Positions 6,155 to 64,000 of a DNA stretch of 64,000 nucleotides are shown here, piece after piece (the first letter of the stretch is position 1; the number at the start of each line of letters is the position of its first letter). Under the pieces are notes generated by a model. It had not been told where the DNA came from. It saw nothing but the letters and a program-made list of their open reading frames with translations, and did not search any database. Made by a program: the position numbers and the translations under genes. Origin of the DNA: Ophelia neglecta (Eukaryota); the NCBI GenBank assembly GCA_965285935.1, contig OZ260667.1, forward strand, positions 65,782,001 through 65,846,000. The letters are read 5' to 3'.

Positions 6155-6499
6155 CCTAGACCGATCTACCTAGCCTTGTTTTTACTGGATGAGAAGTGCA
6201 TATTGGATGCATCAATGTATATTTTTTTTTGTAGACAGAAGTCAAATTATGTCTTTATGCAGGACATGGACTTTTGCCCTGCAAAAAATATTTTTTGTAT
6301 TTGGGTTATATTTATGCTGTACCTTTTTGTTCATCATTATCGCCTTGTGTATAGCTATTATACACTTATATATCTTTTGTAATGTTTATCCATATCATGA
6401 CATTCTATCAATGACCCCCATCTCACTCATTCATCTTTCTCGTTGACCGAATACATGTTTTTCACTTAATTTATTGGTCAGGGGCTCTGAAATACGTAG

Positions 6500-14864: not shown

Positions 14865-15119
14865 CGGGGACTTTCCTTTCGGCGAACTGGGAATTTGTTC
14901 CGTCGTAGCATGGAGTCGAGTAGTACCCTGGAGAAACAGTCACCGAAGTGTGGCGGGATAGATTACATTTCCCTGTCTCGGGAATATAGTCGATAGAACA
15001 ACACTTCAAGCGATAGGTCTCACAAAGAGCCTTACATGGGGCGACATTGAACTTCTCCACAAACACAACTACGTCATTGTGATATTTAACGCAGCCTTTG
15101 ACTGTGCGAGACCATGGAT
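14865..15119 (-). CDS. PAN/Apple domain exon
   Basis: 255-bp exon with TTTCCAG acceptor and GTAACT donor, phase 1-1. Translation DPWSRTVKGCVKYHNDVVVFVEKFNVAPCKALCETYRLKCCSIDYIPETGKCNLSRHTSVTVSPGYYSTPCYDGTNSQFAERKVP has the PAN pattern CxxxC...CxSxDY...CxLS. Confidence 0.85.
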
Positions 15120-15963
15120 CTGGAAAGAGAAAAAGGAATTCTTCAGCAGAACCAGCATATTCATAGCAACTCTTTCAATGTTGCCTTTTCGGATGCTTTT
15201 TAATTTTTCAATATACTAAATTGACCCATGAATATTGATACGAAAGAGACAATTAAATGTTTTACCGCACTCTCCGAGACATCCGGTTACAAGGCAAAGT
15301 GTGGACAGTACAACTATCGCCGACTTCATGTTTAAGCAGCAGCACAGTAGTAGGCTAAATGACTATCAATTTACTGTGAGAGGAAACAAAACAATCAAAG
15401 AACTTGTTAAATCACAGCAATAAAATATTGCAATATCCCAATGAAACGACTCCAAATATGTAAATAATGAAATTCCCGCTAACTTGTATTTTCGCGATTA
15501 TTTCCAGCTCGAAAAAAACATTCTGTATGAGATAGGAAATCATGACACAGAATAACTGGCACTGTAATACATGAGAAAATAAACAGGCGTAATATGGCCC
15601 TTATTCGAACCAGAGAGCAGAATGGGTTCGAGGGTCAACATTGACAACCTAAATTCATATTAAAGCATGGAGCTGCGTAACTCAACTTTTCATGAACTTT
15701 TCATAACCAAATAGCTGTAAGTAATAACATTACCTAAGTGCGTGTATGTAGATTATTCTCTGAGTATCCTCTTCGCCGGTAATAGTTTAAAGTAACTCCA
15801 CAACAGCCAGTCAGCGAACGCCTCGGTTTCAGTTAACCTAACCTTGTTGAGTAAACACCATGGAGTGTGACGCTAAGCAGAGTGTGACGCTAAGCAGGGT
15901 GTGTCCTGTTAAACTATGCACGAGACCCTATATATAACTGTTACCGTGCAATTCAAATGATAA

Positions 15964-29825: not shown

Positions 29826-30319
29826 ACACACACACACGGGGGGTTTGACACTCAGACATTTCCGATACAAAACAGTACTAATAATAGAACTGCCAAAGTG
29901 GCCGGCGCCTATTTTGATTAGAAAGGCTGACTGAGTACGAATAAGCGGTGATAAGCATCCTTCCTTCTCAGCGAGCAGAGTGACCCCTTTGTTACACTAC
30001 AGAACCATGTCTTGTTGTCAGGGCTAGAGTGTTCCTCCGGGGCGTAGCGCTTAAGACGGGTGTCTTTTTGTGTCACATATGTTTTCGGCCTCGTGGGTTC
30101 GACTCATCCCTGGGGTGGCACACCCTTTTTCATTTTTTACTCTCGAATGTTGCTTTCTATTTAAAAAGGCATGAATCTATAATGTTTCATTTAAGCTTAT
30201 TCTAAGCTTACAATTATATAAAAGATCTACATGAAGTGAAACATCAGTTCGGACCACCAAGCCTTCGTAGGTGATGGTGAACAAAGAAAAACAAGACATA
30301 GAGACAGACATGTGTTGGG

Positions 30320-30605
30320 TTACACTTCGTGGCTTGTTACATTTAGGGGTTCAGGAGACTAGTGTTAATGTAACTAGATGTAACTATCTGAAATGTAACA
30401 GATTGGGGGGTTGGTTACATTTGATGACGGCTACTTACATTTCGAGTTGATGGTTACATTTCGGGTTGGTTACATTTGGAGGCAGCACTAATAAACCCCG
30501 AAATGTAACCAGCCCCAAATTGTAACCGGTTACATTTGGGGGCAGGTTTTATTTGGGGGTTCAGTAGTGCTGCCCCGAAATGTAACCGACCACGAAATGT
30601 AACTG
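30320..30605. repeat. Repeat/MITE fragment built of GGTTACATTT(C)GGG motifs in both orientations
   Basis: Multiple GTTACATTT and AAATGTAAC copies arranged as inverted sets. Confidence 0.6.
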
Positions 30606-33600
30606 CCAATAAGAGATGTGGATGTTTATGGACACTAATAGGAAGTCCTATGCATGTAACCTGATATATCCTATGAATTTGATCTCTTTTCCAAGGTCAG
30701 ATTATATTATTAATAGACTTTTCATGCCACAATATTTGTTTGTCTGTGCTAGATATCAGAAAGAAATACCAGAAATATTCCATTTGGTCCAAGAAAAACA
30801 ACGTATATACCAACAATAATGAGAAGAAAAAAAGAAAGAAAAAGACCAGGATGACCCCACTAAGATTTTGACAAAATCGCTGGCGATAGGCATATGAAAT
30901 GTGTTGATCACCAATTGGAAGCTATATGTTTGGATATGACAGATAAAAGTCAATTTGACGTTTATTTCTTTTATAATTTCCTAGTCAGAATATTAGTCCA
31001 TTGATTTAATTAATCATTCATTCAAGATCCTATTGCATAGGATACATACTTTGTTTGCTATGGGAGTCTATTTGACAACATAACGTAAACATTTGGTGCT
31101 AGACCTGGACAAAGAGCAGACAAAGTCGATTTTTATTGGATTAAAAAATTACAAGCGAATTAATCATTTAGTCTATATACATTATGCAAGTGGTTACAAG
31201 TTTTGTGAAAGTGGTGCACGAGGTGTCTAAACATTGATTTATTGTTTTTTCTTCTTAATCTGTCAATTGAACTGTGTAGGGGCACTAACATATTAATAGA
31301 TTACCCATCAGATGAGACATTCGGCAGATTCTTCTAGTACCAGAGGTATATATTTTGCCATATGATTTGCATATTTTCCACGATTAAGTACATAAAATTG
31401 CCCCTTTGTCGCAACATTATACCAGTTTGTGAATAACAATTTTTATTCCATCGCCTTATTAAAATGTACTATAAAAAAAACCCAGAAAGTTAAGAATAGA
31501 GTGCATAATTATAAATCAATAGTAATATAAACGCTGCAAGACTTCTGATTCCTTTGTGCACACACCACCAACATTTAATTTGGCATTTTACATACAAATT
31601 CCTTGATTTTCATGTCCAGATCTGATTAATACACAGCTTACCAGAATTTGTTAATAGTGTTGGTTCATCACCACGTATTTTGTTTATTTTATTGGATTGT
31701 CTAATACATGTGTGCAATGTGATAATGGGCTTTGGTCCCTCTGGCACAACTCATTACTACTAAACCAATCATTAACACCAGGATTCCGTAAACTTTAGTA
31801 TACTCACTTAAGTGCAGCTAAGAAATATACAGTACATAGACTTCCATTCTCCATGCTCTTTTTTTAATACACGTGGCCAGAAATACATATTCAATAAATA
31901 ATACTCATTGTGTTTTGATTTACATTTCGTAAATCACGATAATTGCCATGCTGTTATAGTTTCTGCGAAATGGTCTGGGACATTCTATGATTGACAATTC
32001 CAAAGGATGTATCCGATACTTCCAGATAATACCTTGTAAAATCCTAACCATCTGAATTATGTTCTAGCTGCTAGAAATAAACTGGGGACCCTGCTTTAAT
32101 TTTAAGCCTTTGTCTTGCTTGGTAAAATTTAGTACGCCTATCCCTCCATAATTGTTATAGTCTGTTTTCCTCATGAATAGCCATGAACTCTCGACTTTGC
32201 GGTCGTCACTGCGTGGTGCTAAACTTGCGTGATATATATACATATATATGTTGTCGCGGAAAACGCGAGTGGAAGCGAGTAAACGAGAGTGAACGCGAAT
32301 CCAAATGCTTTCATATTGACATGGTAATTTCAAAAAGTAATAAAGCTAACTAAGTTATATACCTAACAAACTAAGTCATTTGAGAACATTAATGTAGTAA
32401 AGCTGAGTAATAACAACTACCAATCGTAATGACGATCGAGTGTATATTTGAAAGAATGATATAACTGTGATTTCTTGAATACCTCTTAAAAAGGCAGACG
32501 TTACTCTTACTGACACCATAACCCTAACTTTATAGTCCCCAAGTGTACCGTATTAACTCCTACCCTCACCCTTACCGTGACCCTAAAGTAATTACCACTA
32601 AACTCGGTGGGTAGAGATCATTGTGGGTCGACTTCATTGTCTACCCAAGTGTATTGATACTCTACAATTAGTATATACATTTAGTTTAGGACTGAAAGGT
32701 GACAACACTGTTGATACAGATGGCAGTTCTAAGAAAACGTCCACTGGCCGGTACATATCACAATGCCAGAGTGTCTACATCAAACGGTACATAAGGTAGG
32801 TGACTTCTCATAATGACGCCAGGGTGGCTAGTAACTGCATGCACTAGGCTACTTGTACCCATTCAATGGCCAATACCGGGCTGTAGGGTGGTGTCACCTA
32901 TCGGGCAACTCCTCAAGTTCATCGCTCATCGAAGGCATGAATACACACATAATGCCTGTCTCGAAAAAAAAGACACTTATGCCCTTTGTACCAACAAGAT
33001 ACCGTTTATAACTATCTGTGCTTTCACCTCCTCATTACTACCTCAATGTGTTACTACTACAATATAGAGAGTAAACACTGAATTTTATATGAAGAATGTG
33101 AAGGATTACAGCTCGGCTGTTCTACCTGGTGGATTAACTCCCCAATGGCCAAATAAGGTTATATTTACGCTGTTCTGTTGACATCCCGTACTTTTGAAGT
33201 CTCTATTTATAAAGATAGCTGCTAAAGAATTACCGAAATGTTGTGATTTATGTTATGATTTAATCTTTTAAAACTTCTAAGCATAATATTAGCCACACCT
33301 AACACATATCTCAGTAATACCAACAGTTTGACAGCTGGCAGTAATTGATGTAGGGGTAGGGATAATTTATGCAGGAATGTCTAAGGCTTGCTTTGACTGG
33401 TTCACTCTGACAAAGCAACCTAGTTGATTTAGCAGAGAAAGTGCTTATGATACTTTATTGAAATATTAAATAAAAATAAAAATATCCGACACATTTACGC
33501 GTTTAATATATAAATTAGAAATATTTCAAGCCTGGGAACATCTAAGCTTAATATATTTATGTACTTTGTCCCAAGAAGAACCTGTTTAAATTGACACTTT

Positions 33601-35188
33601 ATAGTCTATGTTGTCCATGTTTGCTAATTAACGGCTCGTCTATATACACATCACATATATACCTAGTGAGCTACCGCTCCGGGCTTTAAACCACAGACAA
33701 ACCTACCCATGAGACTACCTCACTCCCAGGCAGCCACACCAAGGCGCTTCAGGGAGCTTTACAACACAAAATGGCGTTTTTTATTAACGTTTTCTAGTTT
33801 TATTCCAGGTTTTTTTTACCTAAATGTTAATTATTCGGCTTCAGCCGAATAATGACTTTCCCGATTGTACATAACCTGGCACGTAAACATTTTTATAGCT
33901 GCGGACTTTAAAGGTTTGATTAGTTGTATATTTTTCACTTTTTATACCTCAGCTGCAAGGCGCTAGAGGTGTTATGCTTTTGTGCTATCCCGGCGCCTAC
34001 CGTCTGGTGTCCATGAATAATCGGCCTTTTACCCATGTATTGCCTGAAATTTTGATGGAGGGATACTACATTTATTGCTGTCCTCTACCTATTATACGGC
34101 ATTGACATTGAAAGTGTTTAACAGCAGCAAGCCTGTGGGGGGGGGGGGTTGATGGAGGGTGTGTCGGGGGGGGGGGGGGCTGGGGTTGGTGGAGGGTGTG
34201 GTTAGGGGTTGGGGGTCGGGTGTGTTGTTTGTCGGGGTGGTTGCGGGGGCTAATATGTGGGTGGGGTAAAAACTTTTCGAAGATTGGATCCAAATATTCC
34301 GAACCCGCCCCTCCACCCTCTCTTGGTAATCATGAGTGCTATGAACATGATTATACTCAAAAATACACAAGGGTTGTTGATGAAAGCCAAGAGTCCAATG
34401 CACACAAGTTTACACATTGTATGTCGGGAATGGTAATACGATAAAGTCCAATGTACAAAGGCACGTCTTATAGAAGGGCATGACTACTGGGTTGTCATAT
34501 TGTTCAATTCAGTACGAGTGTAAATGGATAAATTCCAGCATTAGTCCTATACGAGAATTTTGGCGGATAGAAAACAATACTGGGCCGTTTGCCGAAATTT
34601 TAGCGTACGACCTAATGCTTATGCCTCAAACACACTAGGATATTTGGACATATAAGCGTTGAACAGTGGCAAGATTTAGGCAGTCACTTGACTACGTGAA
34701 TGCGACTTATATCATAGACTCCACTTTATATACAGGAGTGTACGTAGAATATGTTTTCACAGTCGATGGCCTGGATATGAAATATAGAATTTGAGGTAAG
34801 ATCATTAATTATACAGTTTTTGACGGAGAACCACAGTTGTTTCTAGTAATATAGACAAAATATATTTGCCATACTAGCGAATTTGTACCACGCGGTTTTT
34901 TGGGCCGAGGGCCTACTTCAGTTGCTTTAGATTTTTTTGCGGAAAACTTTTCTAGTCTTCGTATTCCGTTCTGAATTAAACTGATTTTTTTTAATAAACG
35001 CGTTTTTCGAGATTGACTTTCGCCATTCGGCCAATGAGCTTGTCATTCACGCGACAAATTAAGAGCTTTGAAATTCAGAAATTCTTTGAAAAGGCCAGTA
35101 CAGGCCCACAACCATCGCAATATTTAAACCACTTGCAGGCTAAGGCCTATTTTGCATTACATGTATCTGTTGTGGTAATGGACCTGTC

Positions 35189-35208
35189 GCTGCCGTTACC
35201 TAGCGGTC
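35189..35208 (-). promoter_or_regulatory. CTCF-like motif, copy 1
   Basis: Minus strand GACCGCTAGGTAACGGCAGC, compared with the CTCF core CCRSYAGRKGGCRS. Confidence 0.4.
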
Positions 35209-38200
35209 ATTGGACATGCTCTGGTAGCCGTTGAGATACCATTTCAGCCGACAGAAACACCTTCTTAATAGCCATGCATTGAAATGATTCGTATCTGGTG
35301 TTTTTCAAATTATAATTCAGTACACCATGGCTCCTTGCCAAGCACGATTGTAGTAAACATGCCCTGGTACATTGGTCTTGTTGTCAAGCAGTGTAGGGAC
35401 GGATTAACAGGAACAAGCGGATTCCGGGCCATTTTTCTCCAAATAAATTTCCAACAGCCACCCTCTTGATGTAAACAACTATCTAATATCCTTCAAGGGA
35501 AAGTGGAGCCCTTAATCAAACCATAACTCCGTCCCTTATAGCCCCTGTTTAAATAACACTAAATTCATACTGTTTCCTGATAACAGACCGTTGAACATGA
35601 CGCGTTGAGTTTTGGCTGTATTTGCCAGATAAACATGCGACATTCATCAATGAAAACATACAAACCTGTTCAGGCGTGAGGTCTATTGAATGTATGATAC
35701 ATGGGTGTTTCATGTATACTACAGACCCAGCTCTCACCGCATTTAATGTACTTTATTATACTCGTACTGGTCTACTTTGGAAAACAAGTTAAAGATGCAT
35801 GTGTATGCAATAAAAATATACGTATTTGGTGTAACTTTTGCATACTAATGTAAAGATTGAACGATAATGTCAGGATTGGTACTTTGTGCTTTTATTCAGA
35901 GTCACCACAACCTCGGTCGTTTAAATATATTAAGTAGCGTTGACTTCTGAGGGACCCGTGTTAATAGATATACATGTGTTGATAAAAGGCCCCGTTTACG
36001 CATATAAAGTGTATGATTTTATTTCAGTTATAGCCACCAGAAACCATAATTTTTCTGTCAAGTACTATAAACCGGGAAATATTCATGATAGGATATATAA
36101 TGGTTTAAATTAATGTATTGATGCCGGCAGCAGCTGCACCCTGTACCCGGATTACAGTTACACAAAGAAAACAATACGATATTTTCTTGACAGTGAACTT
36201 TTACAGGAGTAGCACACGATGTTTGTTCAGTAGGTAAATCTTGTTTACCTTTTAATGTTAATTGATTGCTGTGGGAAATGCAAATCCCCTGAAAATTGAC
36301 TGCATGTAATAACTTCAGGTATTCTAACGTGGCTGTAAAAACTACACATGTACATGTATATATCAATATGAGCGGGTAAAGAAAAGGCAGCACTAGCGGG
36401 TGTATTGGCTGGCGGCGGTTGAGGATCCAGAACCAGGTATTTACAATTTACTCAAACCCTTGAATGACACATCAATGCTCCCGGACTGACTGTCAAGTGT
36501 CAACCACCTCACAGCCTCCACAGCCTTAAAGAGAAACATAGCTTCGCTCTGCAGACGCTATTAAAGTTATAGTTCAGCACTGTGCGGACAAAGGCTGTCC
36601 TGTCTGTTTTCTCTGGTATCGTAATGGCCATTAGTATTGGAATGTTTCATATATCTTGGCGTAGGTAGGCCGCACCTACTACATGTCCGGGTTTGCTATG
36701 CATATCCTTTATAGTGCACGGACGGATTAAGGGGACAGGCATAGGGGACCGGACCCCTTTTTTGACTATTTATCCCGCAGACTTGAAATACACACAAGTC
36801 CCACAAACTACAAGTGACAGATGACCAAGCATTTCGAGAATCATAGATCCGCCCCGGGAGGACTTTATGTACATTACACTATTTAAACACTGCTACGCGG
36901 TAAATGACAGGTTGTTAAACAGTAAACGGCTGTTAGGCATTGTTTGAACCTCAATGACGTTCATCGTTGTGTGAACCTGGTGACCTTTAGTTGCCTCGTA
37001 TCTTTGTTTTGCTATTGAACTGTTGGATGCTGCCTCCTGGAGGCCATTATAGATAACAACAGCATTCTGTTTATCGACGGCTGTGCTTTGACAATTATAT
37101 ATAATAGAAATAGTATTGCAATCCGATATATATTGTGCAATAGCAATCCTATCATGTTAGGAGGCAGGTTTACCTAGGTCTGTGCAAAGTCCCATTATTG
37201 AAAATATGGCTTGCTATGTTGGACATGCAAATGTATAACGGGTTTCGATAACACGGCAAAGAAGACATAGTAATATTTATTTGCATGAACTTTACTATGG
37301 TCATATTTGTTTTACTGAGCAGTCGATATGATCTTAATCAGTTTTACAATTAAAATGATGTATATCAATAGTCAAGCAGACTATTATATTTAAAGAATGT
37401 CGAATTTGGGCATCTTTGACACAGGAAAACTTATTCTGTTTTAACATGATTATAAAATGAATTCAAATATATCAGTCGTTTTATATGCAATGTTTTATTG
37501 GCTATACTTCTTATCATTCTACCAATCATATTTCCTATCAAGGTCCGATTGCAAATACGAAAAAAAAAACTATTTGCAAGCCGTCACATGTTATAAAGGA
37601 AGACGGTGCTTGAGCAATGATGTCCGATTGGATACATATTTCGTTTTATATTTAGTACGACAATAAGCTATAAGTGTTTTTCAAATTATCTTTAGTTCAC
37701 GCCAGTTGTTAACCTGCATCTGGCAAATTATGGCAGATGATCCTGGGTCAATGTAAGCTTTGTTCACTGGTAAGGGTATTGAAGTTTCTGAACTTCACAC
37801 ACAGCGTAATGGTGGTACTTGTGTTTGAAACGTCTGCATTATCAGACATTTTTATAAGGCATTTAATCGTTGAATATCGGGGCTTTGCCACTTTGCATAT
37901 AGTTTTAATTTATTTTATGATTATTTTCAAAAGGCCATTCCTATAGATATAAGCAGTGTATGCAAATTCTGAGTGAATACTTATCCTCAGGCATAGCTGT
38001 AAGAGATGTACAATAACAAATCTTAGGCAAGGGGGGATGGGGAGGTGGGGGGGATTCTTAGTGGATATTTGTATTCTAGAGCATAACTATAAGAGGTGAA
38101 CAATAAGAAACCTGCCGTAAGGGGGGGGGATTCTGAGTGAATATTTATCCTCAGACATAGCTGTAAGGGATGTGCCATCCTCCATTCTCGAGGGTGACAC

Positions 38201-38606
38201 ATGAGTTGCCAGGTAAGAGGACGGACGTAGACTAGGGTCAATTAACATATTCATGTTTGTTCTTTTATATTTTCTTATCTTTTTCCCCTGAACTTGCATT
38301 TAGCCTTCGAAGAAAGTTTTGATCTTAGGCGACGGCTGTGGGGGCCGAGAGCGCGCATGAGGTTCTAAAGCTTTATATTTGGAATGGTTTTTGCGGTCCT
38401 CGTTTGCCATTCTAATTAAATCTGTTTTTTATAAACCAATTTATTGTTGATTTAATTCTTCGACTTTCGTCATTCCAGGAATAAGCTTGTCCTTTCACCA
38501 CATTCCTTCGCTAGTACAGACGACACCTGTCACAGTGTACAAACAACTAGTTGGCTAAGGCCCGTTTTGCATTAAACTATGTCTCTGTTGTGGTAATGGA
38601 CCAGTC

Positions 38607-38626
38607 GCTGCCGCTACCTGGCGGTC
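38607..38626 (-). promoter_or_regulatory. CTCF-like motif, copy 2
   Basis: Minus strand GACCGCCAGGTAGCGGCAGC, preceded by TGTAGAAC, which resembles the CTCF upstream module. Confidence 0.5.
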
Positions 38627-40742
38627 GTTCTACAATGAATTTTAAAGCCTATCGCCAATAAAATTATTTACTTTTAATGGACAGATAGCAGTCTTTCATG
38701 AACACAAACAGTTTATTGTCATAGGTCTGACATTGCAAGACTAAACCATTATTAAAAATAAAAAAACATGTAAAGCGTTTAATGTTATTTCAGTTGTCCC
38801 CAGACACTTGTCCTAGGCACTTCAGTTGTCCTAGACACTTTACTCCCTGTCGGTTAACCTTGTCTCTTTAAAATAATGTAAACAGGGAAATAGTCACGAT
38901 GGAATATTAGCACAAATAATTTCAAGTTCACATTTCAAGTTGCTTTACAAAACATTGCAGTGTCCATGTTATGACTTTCGGGGATTCTAGATTATCATTG
39001 CCTGTTGTACCAGAACACTTCCTGGATTACAGTATCACAAAGTAAACATAGCTCATGACAGTGCAAGGCCAGTGAATTATTACAGGAGTAGCGCACGATG
39101 TTTGTTCAGTAAGCTTATCCTGCCTAGCTTATACTGTTATGTGACTGCTAAGTGGCAAAGGTCAATCCTCTCTCAATTGAGTGTGTGTTGATCACTACTT
39201 GATTGTATTATCGCTCACATGGCTGTCAAATATTACACATGTATATATCAATAAGAGAGAGAATACTTTTTACTTTATCCTCAGACATTCTACTTTTATA
39301 CGTACAAACCTACCAAAGCTCCTATCACTCTTGTCAACCAGATGTTATTTGGCATATTAATTAGCGGGCGATCAAGCCTGAATTCTTAGCTATAACATCA
39401 TATCATGTTTCCATGACTTCGCTTGAAAGTGTTGTTTAATATATCGATATCACTGTATATTGTTACAAATGTCCTTACCTTAACACGTACGCGTAAACAA
39501 AGCATGCGGTTAGTTTAAAACGCACATCCAGAATGGTCTGTAGACATTTAACTATTTATGTTAGAAATTGTGACAAATATGCCCCGACCTGCGATGTAAA
39601 CAGACTGCGCTCTATCAATGACTGTATTATCGCTCAGTTGTAATGCATTGAGTTAAGCAAGGCGATAAACATAAAAAAATACAGCGCAGGTTATGTTGTC
39701 GTTATGCAAACAATGCAAGGCCAGGTTGGCGGACTTATATTTTGTGTGTTCAAATAGTGCAAGGCTTTATATCTCAAGGCAAGGAAAAAATGTATTCACA
39801 TATTGTAACCCATATTAATTCAAAACAGGACTTATATAGCACAAATCTACTTATGACTTAATACAATTTATACCAATTTTAACTTCGTACGACTCCTAAA
39901 TCATCCGTTTCATAAAAGTTTCGTGTACAAGCATGCTTAATACATTATATCACTGCCTATTTAACTCTGACCCGGGGGTCGCCATTGTTAACCATCATCT
40001 GTTGAGAATACTTCTAATCAAATGTTCGTGCAATGGGTCAAGGAAAGGAAATTTAGGCATTTAAGATAATTGTATGACATTAATTTTGTCGATGTGTTCC
40101 CGTTATGGTTCGACTTTTACATTCATTAGGCCTCGCATTATTGCTACAAATGTTTGTGTGAGCTTGTAACCGGCTTGAGGTCGTGTGGTGTTGCTTTAAT
40201 TACAGTTCACAGATATGAGGCCTTAAGTTTTCTTGGCATATACATAGAGGGATTTGCATGTAATTCGAGTTCCGACAGTGGGGACATTTTACCTTTCGGA
40301 TTTAATATGGCAAGATTCAAAAGTTTTTCCTTGTCCTTAACCACCACACGAATCTTATTAAGGTTTGGTTATGATTTGAGTCCACGAACAAAACAGGCAA
40401 ACATACTACCACCAAGATTCCTCTGTACAACACTCGGATATTTCACATCGATTTTTCTTGATGCATGGTTGTTTGTGATCTACCTCACCTTTTAAGCCCT
40501 GATACTACAATAACCCCCAACCCGACCCTATTAACTAGATTTCACCCAGGAAATTTGAAAACTTATTAAGATACTACTTTCCTTTTGAATTTAATTTAAA
40601 GGTGCTGGTCTTCTGCGCATCAACCACATATATCGCCTCTACAACTTCACACCATGATTAGAAAAAATGAAATCCGATAATATTCGAAGTACACATGATT
40701 GGGAGTAGATACTGATTTTCTGTTATCGGTAATGGACCGGTC

Positions 40743-40762
40743 GATGCTGCTACCTGGCGGCC
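40743..40762 (-). promoter_or_regulatory. CTCF-like motif, copy 3
   Basis: Minus strand GGCCGCCAGGTAGCAGCATC. Confidence 0.5.
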
Positions 40763-42968
40763 ACTTTACATTAGGGATGATTTTCTAAAGCAATACCGAA
40801 ATGTTAGAATAATTGAGATTTCGACGATGATAATCACAAATTGTCTATCTATTAAATATGTCATCGAAGGCTCAAAATACTCCTGCAGTCTGGGGGTTCT
40901 TTGATGAGGCGGACAGTGATACAAATTCTACAAATTGTGCTATAATATATCAAAAGTGTCTCTCGAGTTAGAGGTTAGATGTGTGTCAAGTACCACTATT
41001 GTAAACATGGCAGAGAACGTTAGGCTTGGCCTTTATAGTACATTAGATTAGAGAGGCGGGTTTAGGAAGGGGGCATAGGGTCAGGACCACATTTATGGTG
41101 AATTTTTTTTTCAATAACCTTGATATTGAAAATCGACCCGAAGCCTTCAGGTGAATGGTAACCAACCCCTTCGGGAAACGACAGGCTCCTCGGGAAACGA
41201 CAGACCGTTAAAATAGAATGTATTTTGCCCTTTTTTCTGACATTGGATTACATGTGATAATAGGGCTGGAGGTAGATGGCGGAGATAACATTGTTGTTGA
41301 TAGGCAGTAAAGAGTTATGTAATGTGGTGAGGGATATGGGGTAGTAACATAACCCGCGGATAATAATGGAGATGACGTTAGTGAAAACCAGGAGAATGCA
41401 TTTTAGCACAATGATTTTATGAAAATCAGATACGTTTGTTAAAGTTGTATTGTTTGATGATCATGTATTTACGCGGGGACCGTATAGGGGTAGAATGGAC
41501 TATGAAGGAGAATTGGGAAAGAGAAATAAATGGAGGTGGAAGCTATGTGAATGGAAGTATCAGAGCAGGCAAAACTTTAACAGCAATGATAATCCGTCCC
41601 ACAAGTTGTGTCAAGCCCCAAAGATAAGTGTTTACACAAACTTAACACTAGTCGAATGGATGAGCTTCAAGAGGGTTTAAATACACCTGATGTACACTCA
41701 CTGTATTCATCACCTGCGCAGGTAACGGTGCAGTCCAATGTAAATAGGCTACGTCTTGTATACAATCATGAATAGTAGAACATATTATAACATGCTTGTA
41801 ACAGGTATGGCTTTGCCAATCTTTGCAAGAGTGTTCATCGCTGAGATTCGGAAGTAAATCATTTTTTCTTTAATTTATTACATGAGCATGAGCATTGGAC
41901 AGGGTGAACAGTTTGTTGATATATGTAGTTAGACATATAACACAAAGAAAGACAATTAGTTAAAATAATGTTGGATTAATCACGTCATAACTTCCTGCAG
42001 GATAAGTGTAGGAGTGGGTGATATCGAGGTAAGAATCTAAACAATTTATTACATGACACAGGTGCTGTCATTTGCTTTAGACTACCTTGCTAAAATGACA
42101 GATTTATTGGAGCGCATGGCAATGGCAACTTCTTTTTTTGGTCTATATTTATATAGATAGTATTGGTAATTCGGCCATATTTAATATATAAGTAGTTAGA
42201 TATATACTATACATGTCCATGATATTTACCACTGCCCTGGTCCGCCGCCAAATGTGCGCTGTAAGGCCTCTTACTTGGCGCCTGTGTTATTTTTTCTACC
42301 TGAAAAAGGCTTTTGCTAAAACCGGAGCCTTTGCCGAGGTAAATCCCAAAATTAAAATGGAACACTAGACATGTTAAACTTGTCCCTAACCCTTCCCCTA
42401 ACCCTGAAATTAACCCTCAGCTCAGCCCCAAACCTAGCCTTGCTGACGCTTTTTTTTGCTTCCTGTCACTCTGAAATACCCATGACGTCCGCGTCTGCAT
42501 AGATTCCGCACGTCCGCGTTTAATAAATAGCCCTGAGAAATGCCGATTTAGCATGCTGCCTTCTGTAACACTTAATAAAACTATCCCGTTTTCATTACAC
42601 TAACAGTCAACTAAACAGTACCAGATTCGTGCATGCTGATGATCGATGTCCACCTCGTGAGACAAACCCTGGTCTCATATAGAAAACAATTTTAAGATAC
42701 ACATGTATGCGATAACATATACGTGTTATGCTTTAACATTTCCTTATCATGCTATTGTAATGAATGAACAATCATGTCATGGTTTGTACTTTGTGTTTGT
42801 TTAAATATATTCGAATTTCTTTGAATTCGTCATTCCACATTGCAACAGACCAACAATTTAAGTACCTAGGCTAGTACAAGCTGCAATCTATCACATTATA
42901 TACACACCTAGAACGGCCTATTTTGCATTATATGTGTCTGGTATATGCGTCGTGCTAATGAGCCGTTC

Positions 42969-42988
42969 CCTGCTGCTACCTAGCGGTC
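42969..42988 (-). promoter_or_regulatory. CTCF-like motif, copy 4
   Basis: Minus strand GACCGCTAGGTAGCAGCAGG. Confidence 0.5.
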
Positions 42989-43699
42989 ATTTTATAATGA
43001 AGAGATTTTCTAAAATACAACATGTAGGACCATGTGAATAGGTGTCGATGAATACACGTTGCAGTATAAAGGTCATTAATTGAAATAATCAGTAGTTTTG
43101 AGTACTACAATGTGTTATGTAGAAGTGGAGCGGAATGGCTGTAAACAAGGCTGCTTGATACATTGGTCTTGCTGTCAGGCAGTGCACTAACGGATACACA
43201 GAGAAAAATGGGGTCTGGACTCTATTGGTTCAAAGAATTTCCCCTGACCTCCCTCTGGATAGAAAAACCCATACAGCACATTGCCCTATAAAGTGGACCA
43301 TTCCCCTTTTAAAGCGAAATATAGACCTTATAGGTCTTGTTTAAATTAGTATCGACATACTGGATTAACGTAATGGACATTGATCATTGAAAACATACAA
43401 TCCTGGTCAACGGCAAATTGTGCACCCTATTTAATGATTATACGTTGGTGCCGCAGATACACCGTATATCATATTTAATGTACTTTAGTATATACTCTAT
43501 AGTATATACTATATATTATTATATACTGTCTAATTATATTAGCCATTTGTATCGACTTCCACTGTGCCTGCCAGTGGCGGGTCAAAGAGGTAGCACTTAT
43601 ATATCATTAATAGGGGTCTGTCCCAGAGGTAGACAAGGGTAGTTAGAAATCAGACATCATTTTAACAGATCAAGTTTTATCGAACACTGACGATGGTTT

Positions 43700-44310
43700 G
43701 TTAACTGGTTTTCTACTTGTTGACTTGCAGAAAGCTTTCGACACTGTTGACCATACAATTTTGCTTAGAAACTGGAGACCATTTGGGATGCAAATAACTG
43801 CTTTCATGCTTTAAATCATATCTCGGTGGTCAGTTTATTAATGTAAATGGTATTATGTCAGAGAGCCTAGACGTTCAATGCGGGGTGCAAAAGGGGTCCA
43901 TACTGGCCCCACTAATATTCCTGTTGTATAAGTACGACATGTAAAACTCTACAAATTGTCACCTTATGTTATATGCCGATGGCTCAACTTTAATTGCGTC
44001 TGGTCAGACTTTCGCGAAATTGAGGGTCGACTCACTATAGAGCTCAACTCTTTAAGTGACTGGCTAATCACAGATAAGCTGTCTTTGCATCTTGGAAAGA
44101 CTGAATGTTTTCTATTCAAGGGTATTGCAATTGAATATAAGACTTTTGTCAAGTACCTAGGTGCATTTATTGATCAACATATGTTGGGAGAAAATATGGC
44201 CAAATATGTGATCGATAAGATAAATATGAAACTGAAATTCTGATATCGGAATCAAAGCTACCTGAACAGCAAGGTAAGAAGGTTGTTAGGTTATGCCTTA
44301 ATACAACCGC
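43700..44310 (+). mobile_element. LINE (CR1/L2/Jockey-like) reverse transcriptase pseudogene fragment
   Basis: Motifs VDLQKAFDTVDH, CGVQKGSILAPLIFLLY, LMLYAD, LSLHLGKTE and VKYLG, with stops and frameshifts. Confidence 0.9.
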
Positions 44311-45539
44311 AATATTTTTTTAATTCGAAGGCAATATGTAATTTTCTGGTCAGTGATATTCAATGTCCCAGTCTATGTGTTGCATGTTTATTGATTGTGT
44401 GTCTAGTCAAAGCTATGCTGGGTATGTGGATTATTTTCTCGTTTTTATGGCACCGTCATCAAAATAATCGCCTGCAAATCTCTCTCTCCCCCCCCCCAAC
44501 CCTACCCAGTTACCCACACATATATACTACCCTATTTTCACCATTGCCTCCCTTAACACCTCCCAACCCATCAGCATTTATAAAGCCTCCCCTCGAACCT
44601 TCTGTCCCTCTCTGCACTGGACAATATATTATAATTAAACCACCCTTCCCCTCGGAGTCATATACGGCTGAAACCAATCAGCAGTAGCACATCCTACCCC
44701 TGTCTATTTCCCTCACGTAATTTTGACATTGTGCGACAGAAGCTTTTATAGAGAGCGGTGTTAAAAGATGAGTGTTGAGGAGCTTTATTATTCTGACTAA
44801 AAGTATGATTATATATGAAAATCTACACATTCATCATACAAAGGAATAAGTGTGCATTATCACCACTGTTTGACAGCCGTGTCCTTGACCTCAGATGTAA
44901 ACACACTGACTTGTTCGCCTGGTATTGATTGTCCCGGTGTGATAAATGTATATCAGTACTCTACGAAACGCATTTTCCTTGCGGAACACAATTGGTGCGT
45001 TCAACGACTGTGATCAGATTTGATCATGTTACGGTTCGCGTACATTGAAGAAAAAGGGTAAAAAAACTCGCACTGATTCAGTACCACTGGTAACAATATT
45101 TGGAAATATTGATGAAAATATTCCGTATGAGTATTCGCCAATAGACAATCACTGCCACTAGACAATCTAAAATTTCATATAAGCTGTCCCCATCGGCACG
45201 TGAGAGGGTCGCTTTTTTACTGTTTCCCGTTGAAGCGGTAGACAGATGTGTCATTGGCCTCTGACGGAAAGAAATTAGCGACCAAATGATGGCTACATTA
45301 TTTACTGTATTATCACCCATTTACATTCTATCGCTATATTGTGTAGAGGCTAGCTAGGCACTAGAAAAATACAGCGCGGTTCATATTATCGTTGTGTACA
45401 CAGTGCAAAGCTATATGACCTGGATTTATATTCACTGTATACACAAAGGGGATCGCTTAAACATCAACACAAAGGAGCCGCACATTGAGATTGAAATACC
45501 GGAGCGTATATCTGTGTATGATAGATGAGAAGACATAAG

Positions 45540-46054
45540 TACATACCATAAGGGTTTGGCTTGTTTGATAAAATTTATTACTCCTATCCCTCCATACTTT
45601 CTCGTCAAGTATAGCCTGTTATGTTCTTCTTGCGTTACATATTATTTTTCAATACAATTTTACAATTGTGTTCTTCTAATTCAATACCAATTATAATCTT
45701 CGACATTACAGTTTCCCGACCTTACTCCTATGGTTTTATATGTGTGTGTAATATTGTTTATATCCTTATAAGTCCACCTCTCCGGTGTTAGGCGGCCACA
45801 CAACAAATCTACATTTTGTCCATATTCGTAATTCACTTGTAAAAATGAGTTCATGATATTGAGGGCTTCTAATCCTGATAAGCAATCAGATACACATTCC
45901 CATCATCTGCACATGCCTTGGACTTGTCCTCTTTTGTAGGTAAAATAAACCATATACATTTTCTGGATTCATTTATTGTAATCAGCAAATAGTTTGCCAA
46001 GAGAATATCAAGTAAAGGAGGTAAAGGAGAGCAGTGTCTTATCCCGCTAGTCAA
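45540..46054 (-). mobile_element. L1/Tx1-like LINE RT fragment
   Basis: TSGIRHCSPLPPLLDILLANYLL...KSKACADD resembles the L1-clade RGIRQGCPLSPLLF...QYADD. Confidence 0.65.
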
Positions 46055-48068
46055 ATTAAAAATTTAGTTAGAAAACCATTTGGCATTATTTTTGTTCTGT
46101 CTTTTTACATAAAATGTTTACCCATTTTGCACTTCATCTGCACACCCGAACTTAGTCAGTGCTTTTTAGACCCTGACAAAAAATTATGCCCCCAACCCGA
46201 CCGGCAGCCTTCGCTCTAAGCTTGTAACCGATACACAACCTTCCCGGCTTTCAACACCGAATACTCAAGAATTAATATAACTAACTAGAATCAAGTCATT
46301 AGAGACGAAAAGTTGATTATTATCATCATGATTTCCCTTAAGTTTCAATATAAGAACTCATAAGAATCGCATGTGCAACATTTTATTTATGGCAATGACA
46401 ACTGCCAATTCCTATGTATGTCTGTTATTAAGTATATATTTGACAGGAATGGTGTAACCGTGATTTCTTGGTAACCTCAAAAATAGGTAGACATTATTCT
46501 TGTTAACACTCTTAACAATGACACTTACATTTCAGACCGCAATACTACAGTATTAACACGTACCCTAACCGGTACGCAACCCCTCAATTAATTACCACTT
46601 AACTCAGTGGGTCGAGATCTTTGTGGGTGGCTATAATCACTATAAATGTAGTTTATGAACGGTGACAAACACTGTGGACACAGATGACTGTTCAAAGACA
46701 GTTATGGGACGTTATATATCACAGTGCACGTATACTACATCAAACAGGACATAGGTAGGAACCCTGCTATAATGAGGACAGTATAGTTTATAACTACATG
46801 CACTAGGCAATATGTGCCCATTCAAGAACTTATACCTGAGTGTAGGGTGGTGACACCAACCGGGAAACTCCGCAACCGTTTATCGCCCACAGAAGGCACG
46901 AATGCTCATAAAATACCTGTCTTAAAAAACAAGACACTGATGTCCTATACACCAACAAGATACAGTTAATACCTACCTGTGTGTTCTCCCCTGCTCATTG
47001 CCTCATTACTGAACTTGTTATTAGTACAACACAATTTATAGAGTTAACACTTAATCTTATATGAAGGAAGGGAAGGAAAACAGCTTGGCTGTTCTAGCAG
47101 GTGGATTAACTCTCCAAAAGATATATATAGATTGTTTACGCTGTTACGTAGACACTTTTGAAATATAATATATATAAAGATAGCAGTCAATGAATTACCC
47201 AAACGTTGTATTTTATCTCATCTTTTAAAACTTCTAGGCATAATATTAGCTACACATTGCACATATTTTAGCAAAAACAATAGTTAGACAGCTGGTAATT
47301 ATTTATGCAAGCGGTAGGATAATTTAAGCAGGAATGTCTAAGGCTCGTTTTGAATGGTGCACTCTGACAAAGCAACCGACAGGTATAGTGCCAAATATAA
47401 TATTGACAAATTCCCTCAAATATCCGACACTCTGACGTTTTTAATACTACAGAATATAAATAAACCAAGCCAGGGAACATTTAGGCTTATTATATTTATT
47501 TATTCTGTCCCAGGAAGAACCCGTATATACTGATACTTTATGGTGTATGCTGCCCAGGTTTGCTTATTGACGCTCCAAGTGTAGGGACTGGATCCCCTTT
47601 AGATCTGTCACTGCTAAATGGGGGTTGGGTGGGGCTTGGATTTCTGACGGGCGTCAAGTCCACATCTAGGACAAAAAGTTGTTAATTGGGGGTGGGGGTG
47701 GGGGGGTGGGGGTGAGATTTCTGCAAACCTCCTCTCTAGATCTGTCAGTTGTTAACAGATGTGTGTGGTGGGGGTTAGTAGGCAGGAAACCGGCACTGCC
47801 TACTTTAGCAGACAAGTCATAAGACATTGTCATATTATCCTGATTGTCAACTTCGGCTGACAGTCGTTTATCCCACATACCCCAACACCCAACCCTTCCG
47901 CACACATATACCGTCTTCTTGCAACCTTTGCCTCCCTTAACACCTCCCAAGCCATCAATATGTGTGAAACCACCTCGGCGTTAAATATTTCGGTTTGGGA
48001 CGAAAATCAATACCTTAAACCCGCACTGGTCTAAGAGTTCATTAGGAAACAGCATTGGCAAAATACAG

Positions 48069-48254
48069 NNNNNNNNNNNNNNNNNNNNNNNNNNNNNNNN
48101 NNNNNNNNNNNNNNNNNNNNNNNNNNNNNNNNNNNNNNNNNNNNNNNNNNNNNNNNNNNNNNNNNNNNNNNNNNNNNNNNNNNNNNNNNNNNNNNNNNNN
48201 NNNNNNNNNNNNNNNNNNNNNNNNNNNNNNNNNNNNNNNNNNNNNNNNNNNNNN
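48069..48254. other. Assembly gap (N run), followed by a (TA)n microsatellite at ~48262-48310
   Basis: Directly visible. Confidence 1.
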
Positions 48255-48258
48255 CCCC

Positions 48259-48313
<55 letters not shown>

Positions 48314-49425
48314 TGGCTGTTATTATTTGGGCATCCAAATTTGGCCAATCAGGTACAGGAATCCTTTTCTGTAATTTTGCTAAAACAGGGGCAGGTATGG
48401 GGCCGTTCGACAGAAATACTACATTTCTACTAACCTCCCTCCGTCCAAAGTTTCTAATATTGCATTCCTTACTATCGATGATTTGATGATATCAGTTTGA
48501 GATTTATACGTCAATGGGCCAAACGACTTGCGGAATACAATTGGTTGGGTGCATTAAGCTTTCCGTAATGAGGTTCGGTCATTTTACGGATCTTATACAT
48601 TAAGGAAAAATTAGGACAACTTGTAATGATTCAGTACCATTGGTGAAAATATCATCGGAAGTGTTCTTGAAAAATGTCTATTCCATTGTACTACACGAAG
48701 GACGCCAGTTTACGGGAGTTCGCGTTTGGTGAGGTAGATTACGGATCACTATCACCAGACAAGCTAAACTATAGTTGTACCCATAGGTACGGGGGGGGGC
48801 TTGTTGTATATACTCAATATATTGTCATGGGATGGTCTGCATAGAATTGGCTCAAAGCATAGCTCGTGTGGTTTCTCAGTGACTATTTTGTATCCTCAGG
48901 CATAGCTGTAAAGGAATCAGCATTAGGTAACTGTAGAGGTGAGGGGGGAGGGGGCTGGAAAATAATCTTCTATCAAACTTTTATATAAGTGCATGGGAGT
49001 AAAAGTTAGAATTGCATTCTCGAGGGTGAAATATGAGTTGCTAGGTAAGAAGAGGGACGTTTACTATGGTCAGTTACCAATTTCCTCTTTGTGCTTTAAT
49101 ATGTTCTATTATTTTTCGTCTGATCTTGCATTTAGACTTGGAAGAAAGTTTTGAACTTACGCGGTGGCTGTTGGGGCCGAGAGCCCGCTTGTGTTCTATT
49201 GGGAAAGTTTTCGCGGTCTTCGTTTGCCTTCCTGATTTATCCTGTGTTTTTATAAACCACTTTATTTGTGATTAACTTCTTCGACTTTCGGCATTCCACG
49301 AATGAGCTTGTCATTTCGTCACTTTCCTTCGTTAGTACAGCCGTCACCTATCACAGTATACAACAACTAGTAGGGAAAGACCTATTTTGCATTATTCATG
49401 TCTCTGCTGTGGGAGTGCTCCCGTT

Positions 49426-49445
49426 GCTACCGCTACCTGGCGGTT
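49426..49445 (-). promoter_or_regulatory. CTCF-like motif, copy 5
   Basis: Minus strand AACCGCCAGGTAGCGGTAGC. Confidence 0.45.
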
Positions 49446-50616
49446 GCATTGCGATGCAGTGTTTAGTGTTTAGCAAGTTAGCATATAGTTCACGCTGGCT
49501 CGGTGCCAGGCGCACTTGCAATAAAACATCGCTTGTTACATTGGCAGGGACGGATATCAAGGACACGCAGGATCTGGGCCGTTTTTCTTTAAAGAGGTTT
49601 CCCCAAAACGCTCTATCGATGTGAACAACCATCCTATTCCATTGAAGTGAATGTGGAGCCATCAAGCGAATTATAGCTCCTACCCTTATAGGCCTTGCTA
49701 ACAGACCGTTCTCCACGGCGTGTATGTTGAGCTTCGTCTGTTATTGTCAAATAAACGTGTAAGGGCATTTGGCAATAAAAACAAGGTCAGTGTAAAGTCG
49801 TGAGGCCTATAAAATGGATTAAAGATTTGGATTTCTCGGGTACTCAAGAGACCCAGCTCTCACTACGTGCGACACACCTTAGTATAGGCGCCATGTATTA
49901 AAGCTGTATTGTTTTGACATGTAGATAAATCTTTTCATACGAATGTAAAGTGAAGATATTTGGTCACCAGGTAAAACGGCTTTTTATTTTAACATGTATC
50001 TGACATATTCATTGCTATTAACATTGTCATCTGTGATACCCTGCTTTGTTTATCCTAACCTTATCCAGCAGTTTATGGGTTCGAGAATCGCCGATGTAGC
50101 ATCCTGCCACTTGTTTGCAGCCGAAACTTTCCAATAAAACTATCCTTATTATATTGCATTGAATGAACATACATTTAATAGTTTTTACTTTATGTTTTTT
50201 TTTCATTTCACACATTTAATGCGTTAAATGTTTTTTCAGTTGTCGCCACCAGACACCTTACTCCCTTTCAGTCCACAATATCTGTGTCGAATACTGTAAA
50301 CAGGGAAATAGTTGCGATGGAATATTAGCGCAAAAAATCACCCCCACTTAAATAACGTGTGCAGTCTGGGGGTTCTTTGATGAGAGTAACAGTCTTACAA
50401 ATTATACATATTGTGGTATAATATTTCAGGAGTGTTTATAATGTGAGAGATTATATGTGTGTCAAGTGCATTTGATGGCAGAGGAAGTTAGTATAGTACC
50501 CTGGAGGATGATTTGGAGAGGCGGGTTTAGGAAGGGGGCATAGGGTCAGAACCACATTTACGGTTGTAGTATTGATCTATATCTCATGACCGAAAACAGA
50601 TGTCAGCAGGTTCATA

Positions 50617-50680: not shown

Positions 50681-52174
50681 CGGATGTAATCAATTGTCTT
50701 TTAAGGCCTACGACCTGGAAAAGTCGGATTTTGAGTAAATTCCATAGTATGCAATGTGTCAATGCTTATCAAAGGCAACCATTACACGATAGAAATAGCA
50801 TCACATAACTCGAAATATCAACAGCACACGCATATGATGCTTTGAAGCAGACATGGATCAGAGAGTCTGGATTTGCATTTTTTCACAAGTTTACAATTCT
50901 TGTCTCAAGTAGTCCAAATCCATTAAATGAATGTAAAGGAAGTGACATTAGCTATAAAGAGAAGTAATAAAAACAAATTTATTGTAACAATAAATGCATT
51001 TCTTGTTTTCATGGGAGTATTTTGTTTTGATAACAGTTATATTACCTATTGTACACACATGCCATTCTATGCTACATTTTACTGGTACAAGCCAGCCTTA
51101 AGGTAATTAGCTATGCAGACTAAACTATTGTGCCAAAGGGGTGAAGGTGGCAAAGCCATTGACCGGATAATAGGCCAGCCCAAAAGCAGCCATGCGGATC
51201 AAGACTGGCCTGTTCTACAGACTATCTGCCTTTCAGCGAGCTTCACTCTTACCAGATAGGTGTGTTTGGAAATTCTCCTACCTATAGCACTGATACATGT
51301 GGTCGGCGAGCAATTGGGTTAGTGTCTCTGCTAGTTTTGGTACTTCTTCATAGCCATTATGTTCACTGTAGAAATATTTGGACATTCATTCATTGCCTAC
51401 TGGGCAAATCCCAAATATACTGATACATTCCATTGGAAGTTTCAGAATACTTTAGTGCTAGAGGCACTTGTACAGTTCTCTCATATTTGGTTGATCTGGC
51501 CTGAGGCTACATGAACTAGCTGCCTGGTGTGCGCCCAAAATTGGGGATCAACGCTATACCATCTGCTGGTTTCCTTATAGAAGGCTAGGGGGTAAAATTT
51601 GTACGCATTTGAACTGTCTTCTAAAGAGGGCTGTATTGTGTTAATACCCCTAGCGATTTCAGTGGCCTTGCTCATACTTGCTATGTTTTACTATACACAA
51701 GGGTGATGAATTAGCATCCCTTGGGAATTTCAATATTGTATTAGTTTGTACCATAGCAAAAACGATAAGATTCTATACGAGCCAATTCACATATTGCTCG
51801 CCGACCACTTCACCTGAATACCCTGGGAGAGTGGTACCTCTACTGAGATATCAGAGGGGCGGTGCCGAAAGCATTTAAATTTCTCAACGACTCGTAGTGG
51901 ACAATATTACTATTATTGAGCATCCATAGTAGAGTGGGCTCACTTTGATTATACAATTATAACCTATTGTAAGTCACAAGCTTGTACCTATTATCAGTAG
52001 ACGAGTGTTCCCCGGTGTAAGCGTGCGTGAAAACTTCGGGCCTGCCATTTATACTATATACAGCACGTATATTATATTTGCCACCTGGATAGTAACCACG
52101 CGGAATGGTTATTATCGGCTATGTTTTTCCACAATGCTGGACTTAGCTAGATATGGCCTATTTCGCCTTATTAC

Positions 52175-57670: not shown

Positions 57671-59409
57671 ACAGCAAGGGCACATAAAATGCACTGTATA
57701 CAAACATTAATGGAGTGTCTTCAGCACTATATACAATTTAACAGTCAATTTAATTATAGGTGATAGGCGTATCTATATCTAGGATATCAAAGTTAGCAAT
57801 TGTCTGTCCGTCACTTCTTGGGTGGGGGGCTACTCTTCGGGAGTAGCGGTGGGTTTTCCCCCACCTTTGTAAATTGCCTAATGTTATATTCAATATATAA
57901 CCATTTCAACACAAACATGCGTTGGGTCTTGTTCAATTTACAAATGAACTTCTAAGTGACGGACATGCAAAATAAGAAAACAAATTTATTGTAACAATAA
58001 ATGCATTTCTTGTTTTCATGGGAGTATTTTGTTTTGATAACAGTTATATTACCTATTGTACACACATGCCATTCTATGCTACATTTTACTGGTACAAGCC
58101 AGCCTTAAGGTAATTAGCTATGCAGACTAAACTATTGTGCCAAAGGGGTGAAGGTGGCAAAGCCATTGACCGGATAATAGGCCAGCCCAAAAGCAGCCAT
58201 GCGGATCAAGACTGGCCTGTTCTACAGACTATCTGCCTTTCAGCGAGCTTCACTCTTACCAGATAGGTGTGTTTGGAAACACCCTCCCACCTACCCCCGT
58301 CATCATCCATCAGTACTTATATATTATATATATTATATATATTATGTATTGTTGTGGGTTTTCCCCCACCTTTGTAAATTGCCTAATGTTATATTCAATA
58401 TATAACCATTTCAACACAAACATGCGTTGGGTCTTGTTCAATTTACAAATGAACTTCTAAGTGACGGACATGCAAAATAAGAAAAATCATTTTAGAACAG
58501 AAGCTACAAATTCAATGAAAATAGATGAAATATATGTACAATTTGTGAAACTTGGGTTCTGACTATCATATAAATAAAATGGGTGGTTTTGTAGAAGTGG
58601 GTAGTTGTATGTTGCCAGCTCATAATTACAATAAGGCATATCAATGATTATTTAGTTAAGATACAGGGCTGGATGTGATTGATTGTCTTTTCAGACTTGA
58701 AGCTTAAAGCATGGACCAGAGGGGCTGGCTTTCGCATTTTGTCACAAATCCACATTCCTTTGCCACAAACTATCCAAATGCATTATATGAATGTAAAGGA
58801 AATGCCTTTAGCTGTGTACAAAACTAAAACGAAGATTTTTTTATGATTCTTAATCTTGAAATTTAACGCAAATAAATGAAATACATGTTCGCTTCGTGAC
58901 ATCCTAGTATGTGGTAAAATTAAAACTAGATTAAATACTATATTACTAGATCAAAAACGTGTTTGTATGGCAAATTAACGTAGTAAATAATAAAGAGAAT
59001 AAATGATCATACAAATCTGAATGTAAATTAAAAAAATACCTTGTTAGCCAAACGATTTTTCGGTTCCGGAATGCTCTAACAGAACTCTGCCTAAGTAGTC
59101 ATGATTTGGAAATAAGGATAGGCCATTAAAATTTAATCCTAAAATTGTTGCACACTTAAGTTTTTTTAAATTATGTTATGTCGAAGTAGAGGAGGAAATT
59201 CACTTTTTATTGGGTTGTCCTAAGTAGAGTTCTACACGCACCTACTTTAGGGCGAATTATCCAAGCAACTGTTTACATTATTAATGTCGTCGTAGAACGA
59301 GCAAACCTTATCCTGGTTATGAAATATATTACTCAATTCATTAAAGACAGGGCCCTTATCGTTGGATTATAATCACATATCTGCACGTTCCATAAAACTT
59401 GTTGTAGAC

Positions 59410-62800: not shown

Positions 62801-64000
62801 AACCTCAAAAATAGGTGGACACTACTCTTGTTAACACCAATAACACTGACCTTAACATTCCAGACCGCAGTACTACCTTTTAAAACATACCCCTACACTT
62901 ATCCTACCCCTTAATTAATTACCCTAAACTCAGTGGGTGGAGGTCGCTGTTGGTCGATTTAACTGTATTCCTTTATTGCAGGGACCGATCGTAATAACAC
63001 TTAAAACAACTGAAAAAATATGCTAATATAATTATATTAATGTAGTTTATTATCGCTTGCAATAACTGTCGTTACAGATAACAGTTAATAGATAACGGAC
63101 GGTCCATATCACAGTGCACCTATACAGCAAGCGACTACATCAAACGCTATATAGGTAGGGAACCTCTTATAATAAGGCCAGTATGGTATATAACTACACG
63201 CACTGGGCTACTTGTGCCCATTAAAATGTCAATACCTGGCTGTAGGGTGGCGTCACCAACCGCGAAAATCCGCAACCCTTTAAGAACCACATTATCGCTC
63301 ACCGACGGCATGAATGCAAACAAAATGCCTGTCAAGAAAAACCACGAAACTTTTACCATTTGCGCCAACACGATACATTTAACCTGCTCATTACCGCATA
63401 ACAACATCGACGTGTTACTTATACAGCACAATATTTAGAGTTAACGCTGAATTTTTTAATATATTTAGATTGGAGTCAATGATTCGTTGCATTACCCAAA
63501 TAGTGTGTTTTATTTTATAATTTCATCCTTTAAAACTTGGTAATAATTTATGCAGGAGTATAGAAAATTCTAGCAGGAATTTCTAAGGCTTATTTCGACT
63601 AGTATACACTGACAAAGCAACCTAGTTGACCAGGAATAGTGCGGTGGGTAAACCAAATCCCGTTAGAATCCTGCTTTGAATCCCACAATGCGCCGTTCCT
63701 TGTAAGCATTATCCACTCCACACATTCATATCGTAATAGGCATGTTATTGTACAATGTAAGCTGTTCAATTTAAAATTCGTGCATTTCTCTTTGCGATAT
63801 AGGCTCGTCAAATGCGAGCCTTAGCATGCACATTCGTTATGAAGCACTCAACATTTACCGATTCACTCTTGTAAAGAAGATATACGGAAAGTTTTTACCC
63901 CCATTGAAACGACAAGAGTCCAATGCACACAACGTACACATTGTACAACACCTGTGTCGAGAATGGTAATTAGGATAACGTCCAAGGTACAAAATGCGCG

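Follow-up and report, generated by a model that had tools for sequence, protein, structure and literature searches.

A 64,000-nucleotide stretch of the Ophelia neglecta genome (assembly GCA_965285935.1, contig OZ260667.1; C12:65,782,001-65,846,000), here called the window, contains a series of short motifs resembling CTCF binding sites, five of which had been interpreted from the letters alone (the sequence-only reading) as CTCF-marked promoters or a multi-site boundary. We found that these motifs are parts of a non-coding tandem array in a segmental duplicon that recurs mostly near chromosome ends, that the genome encodes a CTCF with an intact finger array and its finger-4 contacts, and that the motif cores appear to be under modest constraint. 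Our preferred but tentative reading is that the array may act as a weak, additive CTCF-type boundary beside a subfamily of immunoglobulin (Ig) receptor genes. Of the functions proposed earlier, the boundary is the one we retain as likeliest, together with the resemblance to CTCF sites, and the promoters found no support.

A head-to-tail array within a multi-locus duplicon

All five 20-bp cores reported earlier were recovered by pattern matching on the minus strand, with zero to two mismatches (100 shuffles gave no match). Four belong to an A-type cassette (35189-35208, 38607-38626, 42969-42988, and 49426-49445) and one to a B-type cassette (40743-40762), and each carries A at position 10 of the site (A10). 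The copy at 35189 has a second change, G11>A, found in no other A-type copy. The count of five was incomplete: a sixth, C-type site with the canonical G at position 10 (G10) lies on the same strand at 37,026-37,044, and two more lie just beyond the window end. The octamer-like TAATGCAAAA was confirmed downstream of the four A-type cores (35150-35159, 38565-38574, 42921-42930, and 49385-49394, all on the minus strand) and is lacking downstream of the B-type core; over all cassettes, it follows the core in six of the seven A-type classes. The TATA-like runs are present (TTTAAATA at 35121 and TATATAA at 42896) but are not conserved at the homologous position in other A-type paralogs. Retention of CpG, taken earlier as a sign of constraint, is uninformative: in the flanks, CpGs are not hypermutable, with 0.135 alleles per site against 0.169 at other G/C sites.

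The genome comprises 762 Mb, 96.9% of which is on seven contigs. Positions 29463-64000 of the window (minus strand) are a truncated interstitial copy of the duplicon, a non-coding mosaic array whose homology to four other copies begins exactly at 29,463. Unique Logan contigs (three public runs of one sample, possibly the source) stop at 29,468, which is in line with this edge being a real junction. The copy extends ~9.6 kb beyond the window end and is 85 to 98% identical to the other copies, apart from a stretch at ~51.0-58.5 kb that is not common to the copies compared. Self-comparison resolved the sequence from ~32 kb to the window end into a mosaic of blocks 68 to 84% alike. In fuller copies, the shared homology exceeds 150 kb and its ends are ragged between copies, a pattern that suits segmental duplication better than a transposon; in the ~90-kb core, a head-to-tail mosaic of non-coding sequence, a CTCF-like motif recurs every few kilobases. 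The suggestion that the cassette might be part of a dispersed transposon did not survive a genome-wide search, in which the 40 scored of 57 candidates all fell in duplicon loci or on unplaced scaffolds; among these matches, no dispersed high-copy element with common ends was evident. A giant transposon or endogenous virus was likewise rejected (no shared ends, no element genes, and only open reading frames [ORFs] of inserted retroelements).

When sets of 33 and 78 exact pattern matches were pooled (some sites being counted in both), the exact cores grouped into 16 chromosomal clusters, each with at least two sites. Of these clusters, 14 are no more than 3.3 Mb from a contig end, and the zone so defined makes up 6.3% of the chromosomes; the window's copy is exceptional in lying 10.4 Mb from a contig end. 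Eight unplaced scaffolds, which may include haplotigs, carry further cores. Neither of the two C2 assembly ends that were checked showed a TTAGGG tract, so "subtelomeric" here means near assembly ends.

The array consists of about a dozen modules arranged head to tail, in an order that recurs every 12-16 kb. The proposed origin by tandem duplication holds. The array units are 65 to 85% alike, scrambled, and non-coding. The cores sort into A-, B-, C-, D-, and E-type cassettes, of which A and B carry A10 and C, D, and E carry G10. Across 15 fetched regions (1.61 Mb), a fuzzy version of the core had 183 matches along the direction of the region and 2 opposed to it (five shuffles gave 0 to 2 matches each), and both regions with opposed cores hold local inversions. 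The shared direction had been read as a functional sign; however, the other modules are also co-oriented, apart from local inversions, so no selection is needed to explain it and it is not evidence of function.

The "exon-like" blocks at 32.9 kb and 46.9 kb, which had been placed downstream of the cores, are copies of one non-coding repeat module, module X (32439-33633 and 46431-47572, with a third copy at 63027-63642; all on the minus strand), whose paralogs differ by frameshifts and stops. The long ORFs listed for the array belong to inserted retroelements, no other coding sequence was detected among them, and codon (3-base) periodicity in 583 gapless paralog stretches was not beyond chance. 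These results leave no variable coding exon for each site to precede. An ORF with a signal peptide (63147-63434) was rejected, being open in recent copies only, broken in older paralogs, and without a Pfam match. An RNA hairpin or ribozyme, suggested by a G:U-compatible stem on the plus strand, was also rejected (no conserved fold and no Rfam match); a shared RNA fold was not found in 19 representatives on either strand (z from -2.1 to +2.1).

CTCF and the fit of the cores to its site

A degenerate pattern search identified one CTCF ortholog, at C5:3.92 Mb, which aligns to residues 309-413 of human CTCF in one stretch (182.9 bits) and contains the conserved fingers 3-7, with the finger-4 helix ELSKLKRH. 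Glu362 of CTCF is reported to lie at C12, Lys365 at G11, and Arg368 at the other neighbor, position 10 (PMC10484683). Equivalents of all three residues are kept here, in an E-x-S-K-x-x-R helix reading positions 12, 11, and 10. The next-best matches are at most 50% identical (150 of 1,566 candidates scored), and a CTCF paralog with an altered finger 4 was not found among those 150. The canonical CTCF 16-mer has 82 matches genome-wide, compared with 0.43 expected and 0 in a reversed control. Judged by sequence, a CTCF with vertebrate-like finger-4 contacts and its canonical motif are both present in this genome. As a separate observation, eight identical canonical 16-mers lie on one strand of C7:104.44-104.93 Mb at a spacing of 45-150 kb; they may mark a further tandem gene cluster whose units carry one site each.

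The core agrees at every position except 10 with the CTCF consensus behind our search patterns. Core classes differ mostly at the flexible positions 5 and 13. Among the 124 forward A/B sites placed by profiles built from flanks only (alongside 23 flank matches without a placeable core), C12 is kept in 123; A6 is present in 31 of 31 class consensuses and G7 in 30 of 31. G10 is retained in the sibling classes, including 31 C-type placements. The earlier statement that the core fits the consensus apart from one G>A change is accurate in its letters, but the change is not trivial: because Arg368 contacts position 10, it removes a direct contact.

Flank-only profiles recovered an intact core in 37/41 (downstream profile) and 30/34 A-type matches, 27/31 B-type matches (downstream profile), and 16/16 C-type matches. 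In old A-type paralogs, identity is 0.88 in the core vs 0.61 to 0.74 downstream. Recent copies hold 14 core variant alleles vs 31.4 expected, a count covering 12 of 19 classes (the other 7 had fewer than four copies). The core/flank ratio of 0.46, against a control median of 0.79 (39 usable of 60 random centers), corresponds to an empirical P of ~0.03; this value replaces a Poisson P of 4e-4, since the procedure itself lowers central counts. By these comparisons, the cores appear moderately more conserved than their flanks, as had been claimed, clearly so for the A type and weakly for the B type, and we regard the suggested constraint as modest.

Several observations weigh against a CTCF-type boundary. 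All five originally noted sites carry A10 where Arg368 reads G, and so do the forward A/B sites, 124 of 124; none has reverted to G, although finger 4 keeps its Arg. Outside the array, A10 has 8 matches, T10 14, and C10 3, compared with 82 for G10 (control, 3 for the T/C pattern); A10 being no more frequent there than T10, the species shows no special liking for A. Key contacts are decaying, with C2 kept in 112/124 sites and G11 in 104/124, and G11>A is reported to lower the affinity of human CTCF 7-fold (PMC10484683); a corresponding value for G10>A was not found. An upstream TGCA-type module, which only a subset of CTCF sites carries, did not appear by eye at its expected spacing in any of the 19 representatives (optimal site as in PMC10287918). 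In old B-type paralogs, core identity (0.85) is hardly above that of the flanks (0.71 to 0.86), and E-type cores are intact in just 13/28 and 13/25 flank-profile matches. Five recent copies delete most of the core, with more deletions among the flank-profile matches, and the six window cores stand only at the 63rd to 95th percentile of 6,826 windows array-wide. CTCF orientation at echinoderm boundaries is described as being without pattern (PMC13317027). The fixed A10 fits a second-best purine under weak selection, plain ancestry, or another reader.

Under the last of these options, the core would be the site of another factor, for example a poly-zinc-finger protein specific to the lineage or a reader of YAGGTA(G) resembling ZEB or Zelda. 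That factor would mark or silence the duplicon, and the likeness to CTCF would be ancestral or coincidental. We consider this unlikely, but a genuine contender. The variants TAGGTAG and CAGGTAA resemble TAGteam heptamers. AGGTA is intact in 118/124 A/B sites, better than C2 or G11; 0 of 10 recent-copy changes fall at positions 5-10 (a post hoc count); the genome holds many poly-zinc-finger genes (the 1,566 candidates above), including a gene located 33 kb downstream of the C1 array; and the variant CAGGTAG recalls the TAGteam heptamer (PMC5515446). However, Zelda is reported to be confined to Pancrustacea (PMC5515446), the G10 sibling classes without AGGTA still keep the CTCF-like frame, and T occupies position 10 in two related 16-mers, one of which belongs to an inverted array copy. 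This explanation also names candidate types of factor and no specific protein.

The core might instead be a neutral relic, a GC-rich stretch of a subtelomeric duplication that has no present function and is prominent because it was picked as the best-looking window. The lack of coding or RNA signal, the equal co-orientation of other modules outside local inversions, the tolerated core deletions, the unexceptional array-wide rank of the cores, and an empirical P of just ~0.03 are all compatible with such a relic. It remains an unlikely account in our judgment, as the core persists where flank identity drops to chance level, the shortage of changes in recent copies survives a matched control, and the core matches a motif for which this genome shows independent enrichment.

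Under the preferred reading of a weak CTCF-type boundary, unequal crossing-over would have turned an ancestral cassette with one CTCF-like site into a 12-16-kb unit that carries three to four sites, and the unit would then have expanded into arrays of up to ~20 sites that spread by exchange between chromosome ends. The A10 sites are predicted to bind CTCF weakly, with one Arg-guanine contact lost, and their G10 siblings to bind well. Site number would make up for low affinity, site direction would be a by-product of tandem duplication, and weak additive binding would insulate the receptor genes from repeat-rich chromatin. In a more speculative version, which we doubt, the arrays would be a spiralian chromosome-end "super-boundary" of no more than ~20 low-affinity sites, kept weak on purpose by the fixed A10 and with a few strong sites mixed in, that insulates or tunes a fast-evolving Ig-receptor subfamily and moves with it between ends. 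If this version is true, the Igh/Pcdh tandem-site insulators would have a convergent counterpart in an invertebrate.

Receptor genes and other neighbors of the array

Coding neighbors of the array were found by ORF blastp. In the duplicon genes, a long cytoplasmic exon with many Tyr and Pro motifs closes with a transmembrane segment. Next come an Ig-domain exon and a second exon, which looks Ig-like but has no Pfam match; a protein database search with one Ig exon yielded no homolog. This architecture suggests a family of predicted type II Ig receptors, large and little described so far, with a putative immune role. The genes run in the same direction as the motif, and most of them stand upstream of array segments or in the gaps between them. 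At least 150 matches to the second exon were found (150 of 295 candidates scored); of these, the 10 closest (80 to 100%) are all at array loci, and most of the other 140 are in large C1 and C9 clusters, where exact cores are absent but for one singleton. The array thus accompanies one subfamily and is not the general promoter of the family.

These positions bear on a protocadherin-like scheme of alternative promoters, in which each cassette would start a transcript spliced to a shared downstream exon or receptor gene. Such a scheme could draw on the recurrent TAATGCAAAA after A-type cores, on the presence of array segments upstream of, and co-oriented with, some receptor copies, and on a report that annelid CTCF motifs are mostly at promoters (PMC7854359). 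We nevertheless regard it as very improbable: the TATA-like runs are not conserved, module X is non-coding, 6.4 kb separate the nearest motif from the receptor first exon downstream of it, the bulk of the array is 3' of the receptor genes, and the ~140 more distant receptor matches lie in clusters without these cores.

The predicted receptor family forms clusters at C1 0.6-23 Mb and C9 3-23 Mb, and further copies were seen at C1:148.437-148.479 Mb; one member of the family carries a premature stop. The surroundings of the window's array (positions 1-11800 and neighboring regions) are a tandem duplication of ~120-130 kb, mostly 75 to 93% alike, with divergent receptor paralogs, which places this array copy inside another receptor cluster. 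A PAN/apple-like exon at 14857-15171 (minus strand; Pfam E value of 0.008, below the cut-off) was not found at the other fetched array loci, and a protein search with it gave no match. One fetched region has an open NACHT/NLR-type ORF of 583 amino acids on the plus strand at the duplicon edge (3706-5454 of that region). A cluster of poly-C2H2 zinc-finger genes surrounds the C1 array (C1:147.7-149.0 Mb), and the gene 33 kb downstream is on the same strand as the array; a general link of the array to such genes was rejected, as a zinc-finger exon occurs in just 1 of the 15 fetched regions.

The array also carries insertions. At its 3' end, a high-copy palindromic foldback or MITE-like element (30257-30620, an inverted repeat without assigned strand) has 218 matches dispersed genome-wide and a summed depth 10 to 50 times that of its neighbors. 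A second very high-copy short repeat is inserted at 42026-42526, with 30 to 50 times the summed depth of its neighbors. A perfect direct repeat of 303 bp at 50970-51272 and 57977-58279, 7 kb apart, flanks the stretch absent from other duplicon copies, which looks like a recent LTR-type or duplicative insertion.

Comparison with known systems

CTCF is the top motif in the open chromatin of an annelid, where its motifs are mostly single (PMC7854359), and a role of CTCF in building spiralian boundaries is treated as an open question (PMC10658181). We found no description of such an invertebrate array in the limited collection of literature searched. The duplicon contains more than 100 naturally occurring versions of a single site, with G10 or A10 and with the core intact or deleted, at no fewer than 16 loci, and offers a test of whether weak sites sum into insulation in an invertebrate. 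If CTCF does not bind, it would represent an ordinary decaying subtelomeric duplication.

Tandem arrays of CTCF-like sites are known, for example, in the mammalian Pcdh and Igh clusters (PMC7087399); in the present array, the defining G is missing in most sites and function is predicted only. As in those clusters, many co-oriented CTCF-type sites adjoin a multigene Ig-superfamily or adhesion cluster. Unlike them, the predicted sites mostly have A at the Arg368 position, lie kilobases apart in a decayed non-coding mosaic rather than at variable-exon promoters, and occur at no fewer than 16 loci. Units of the D4Z4 macrosatellite are homogeneous and gene-bearing, whereas those described here are diverged, scrambled, and non-coding. 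D4Z4 is similar in being a subtelomeric multi-kilobase tandem repeat, one that carries a CTCF-dependent insulator element (PMC3002039). Human subtelomeric repeat elements, with their CTCF/cohesin sites, provide a further parallel, as they are segmental duplications common to chromosome ends that combine CTCF sites and gene families (PMC4032850). The O. neglecta arrays differ from these elements in lying 0.2 to 3 Mb from the ends, with no telomeric tract at the two C2 ends, and in being internally multiplied.

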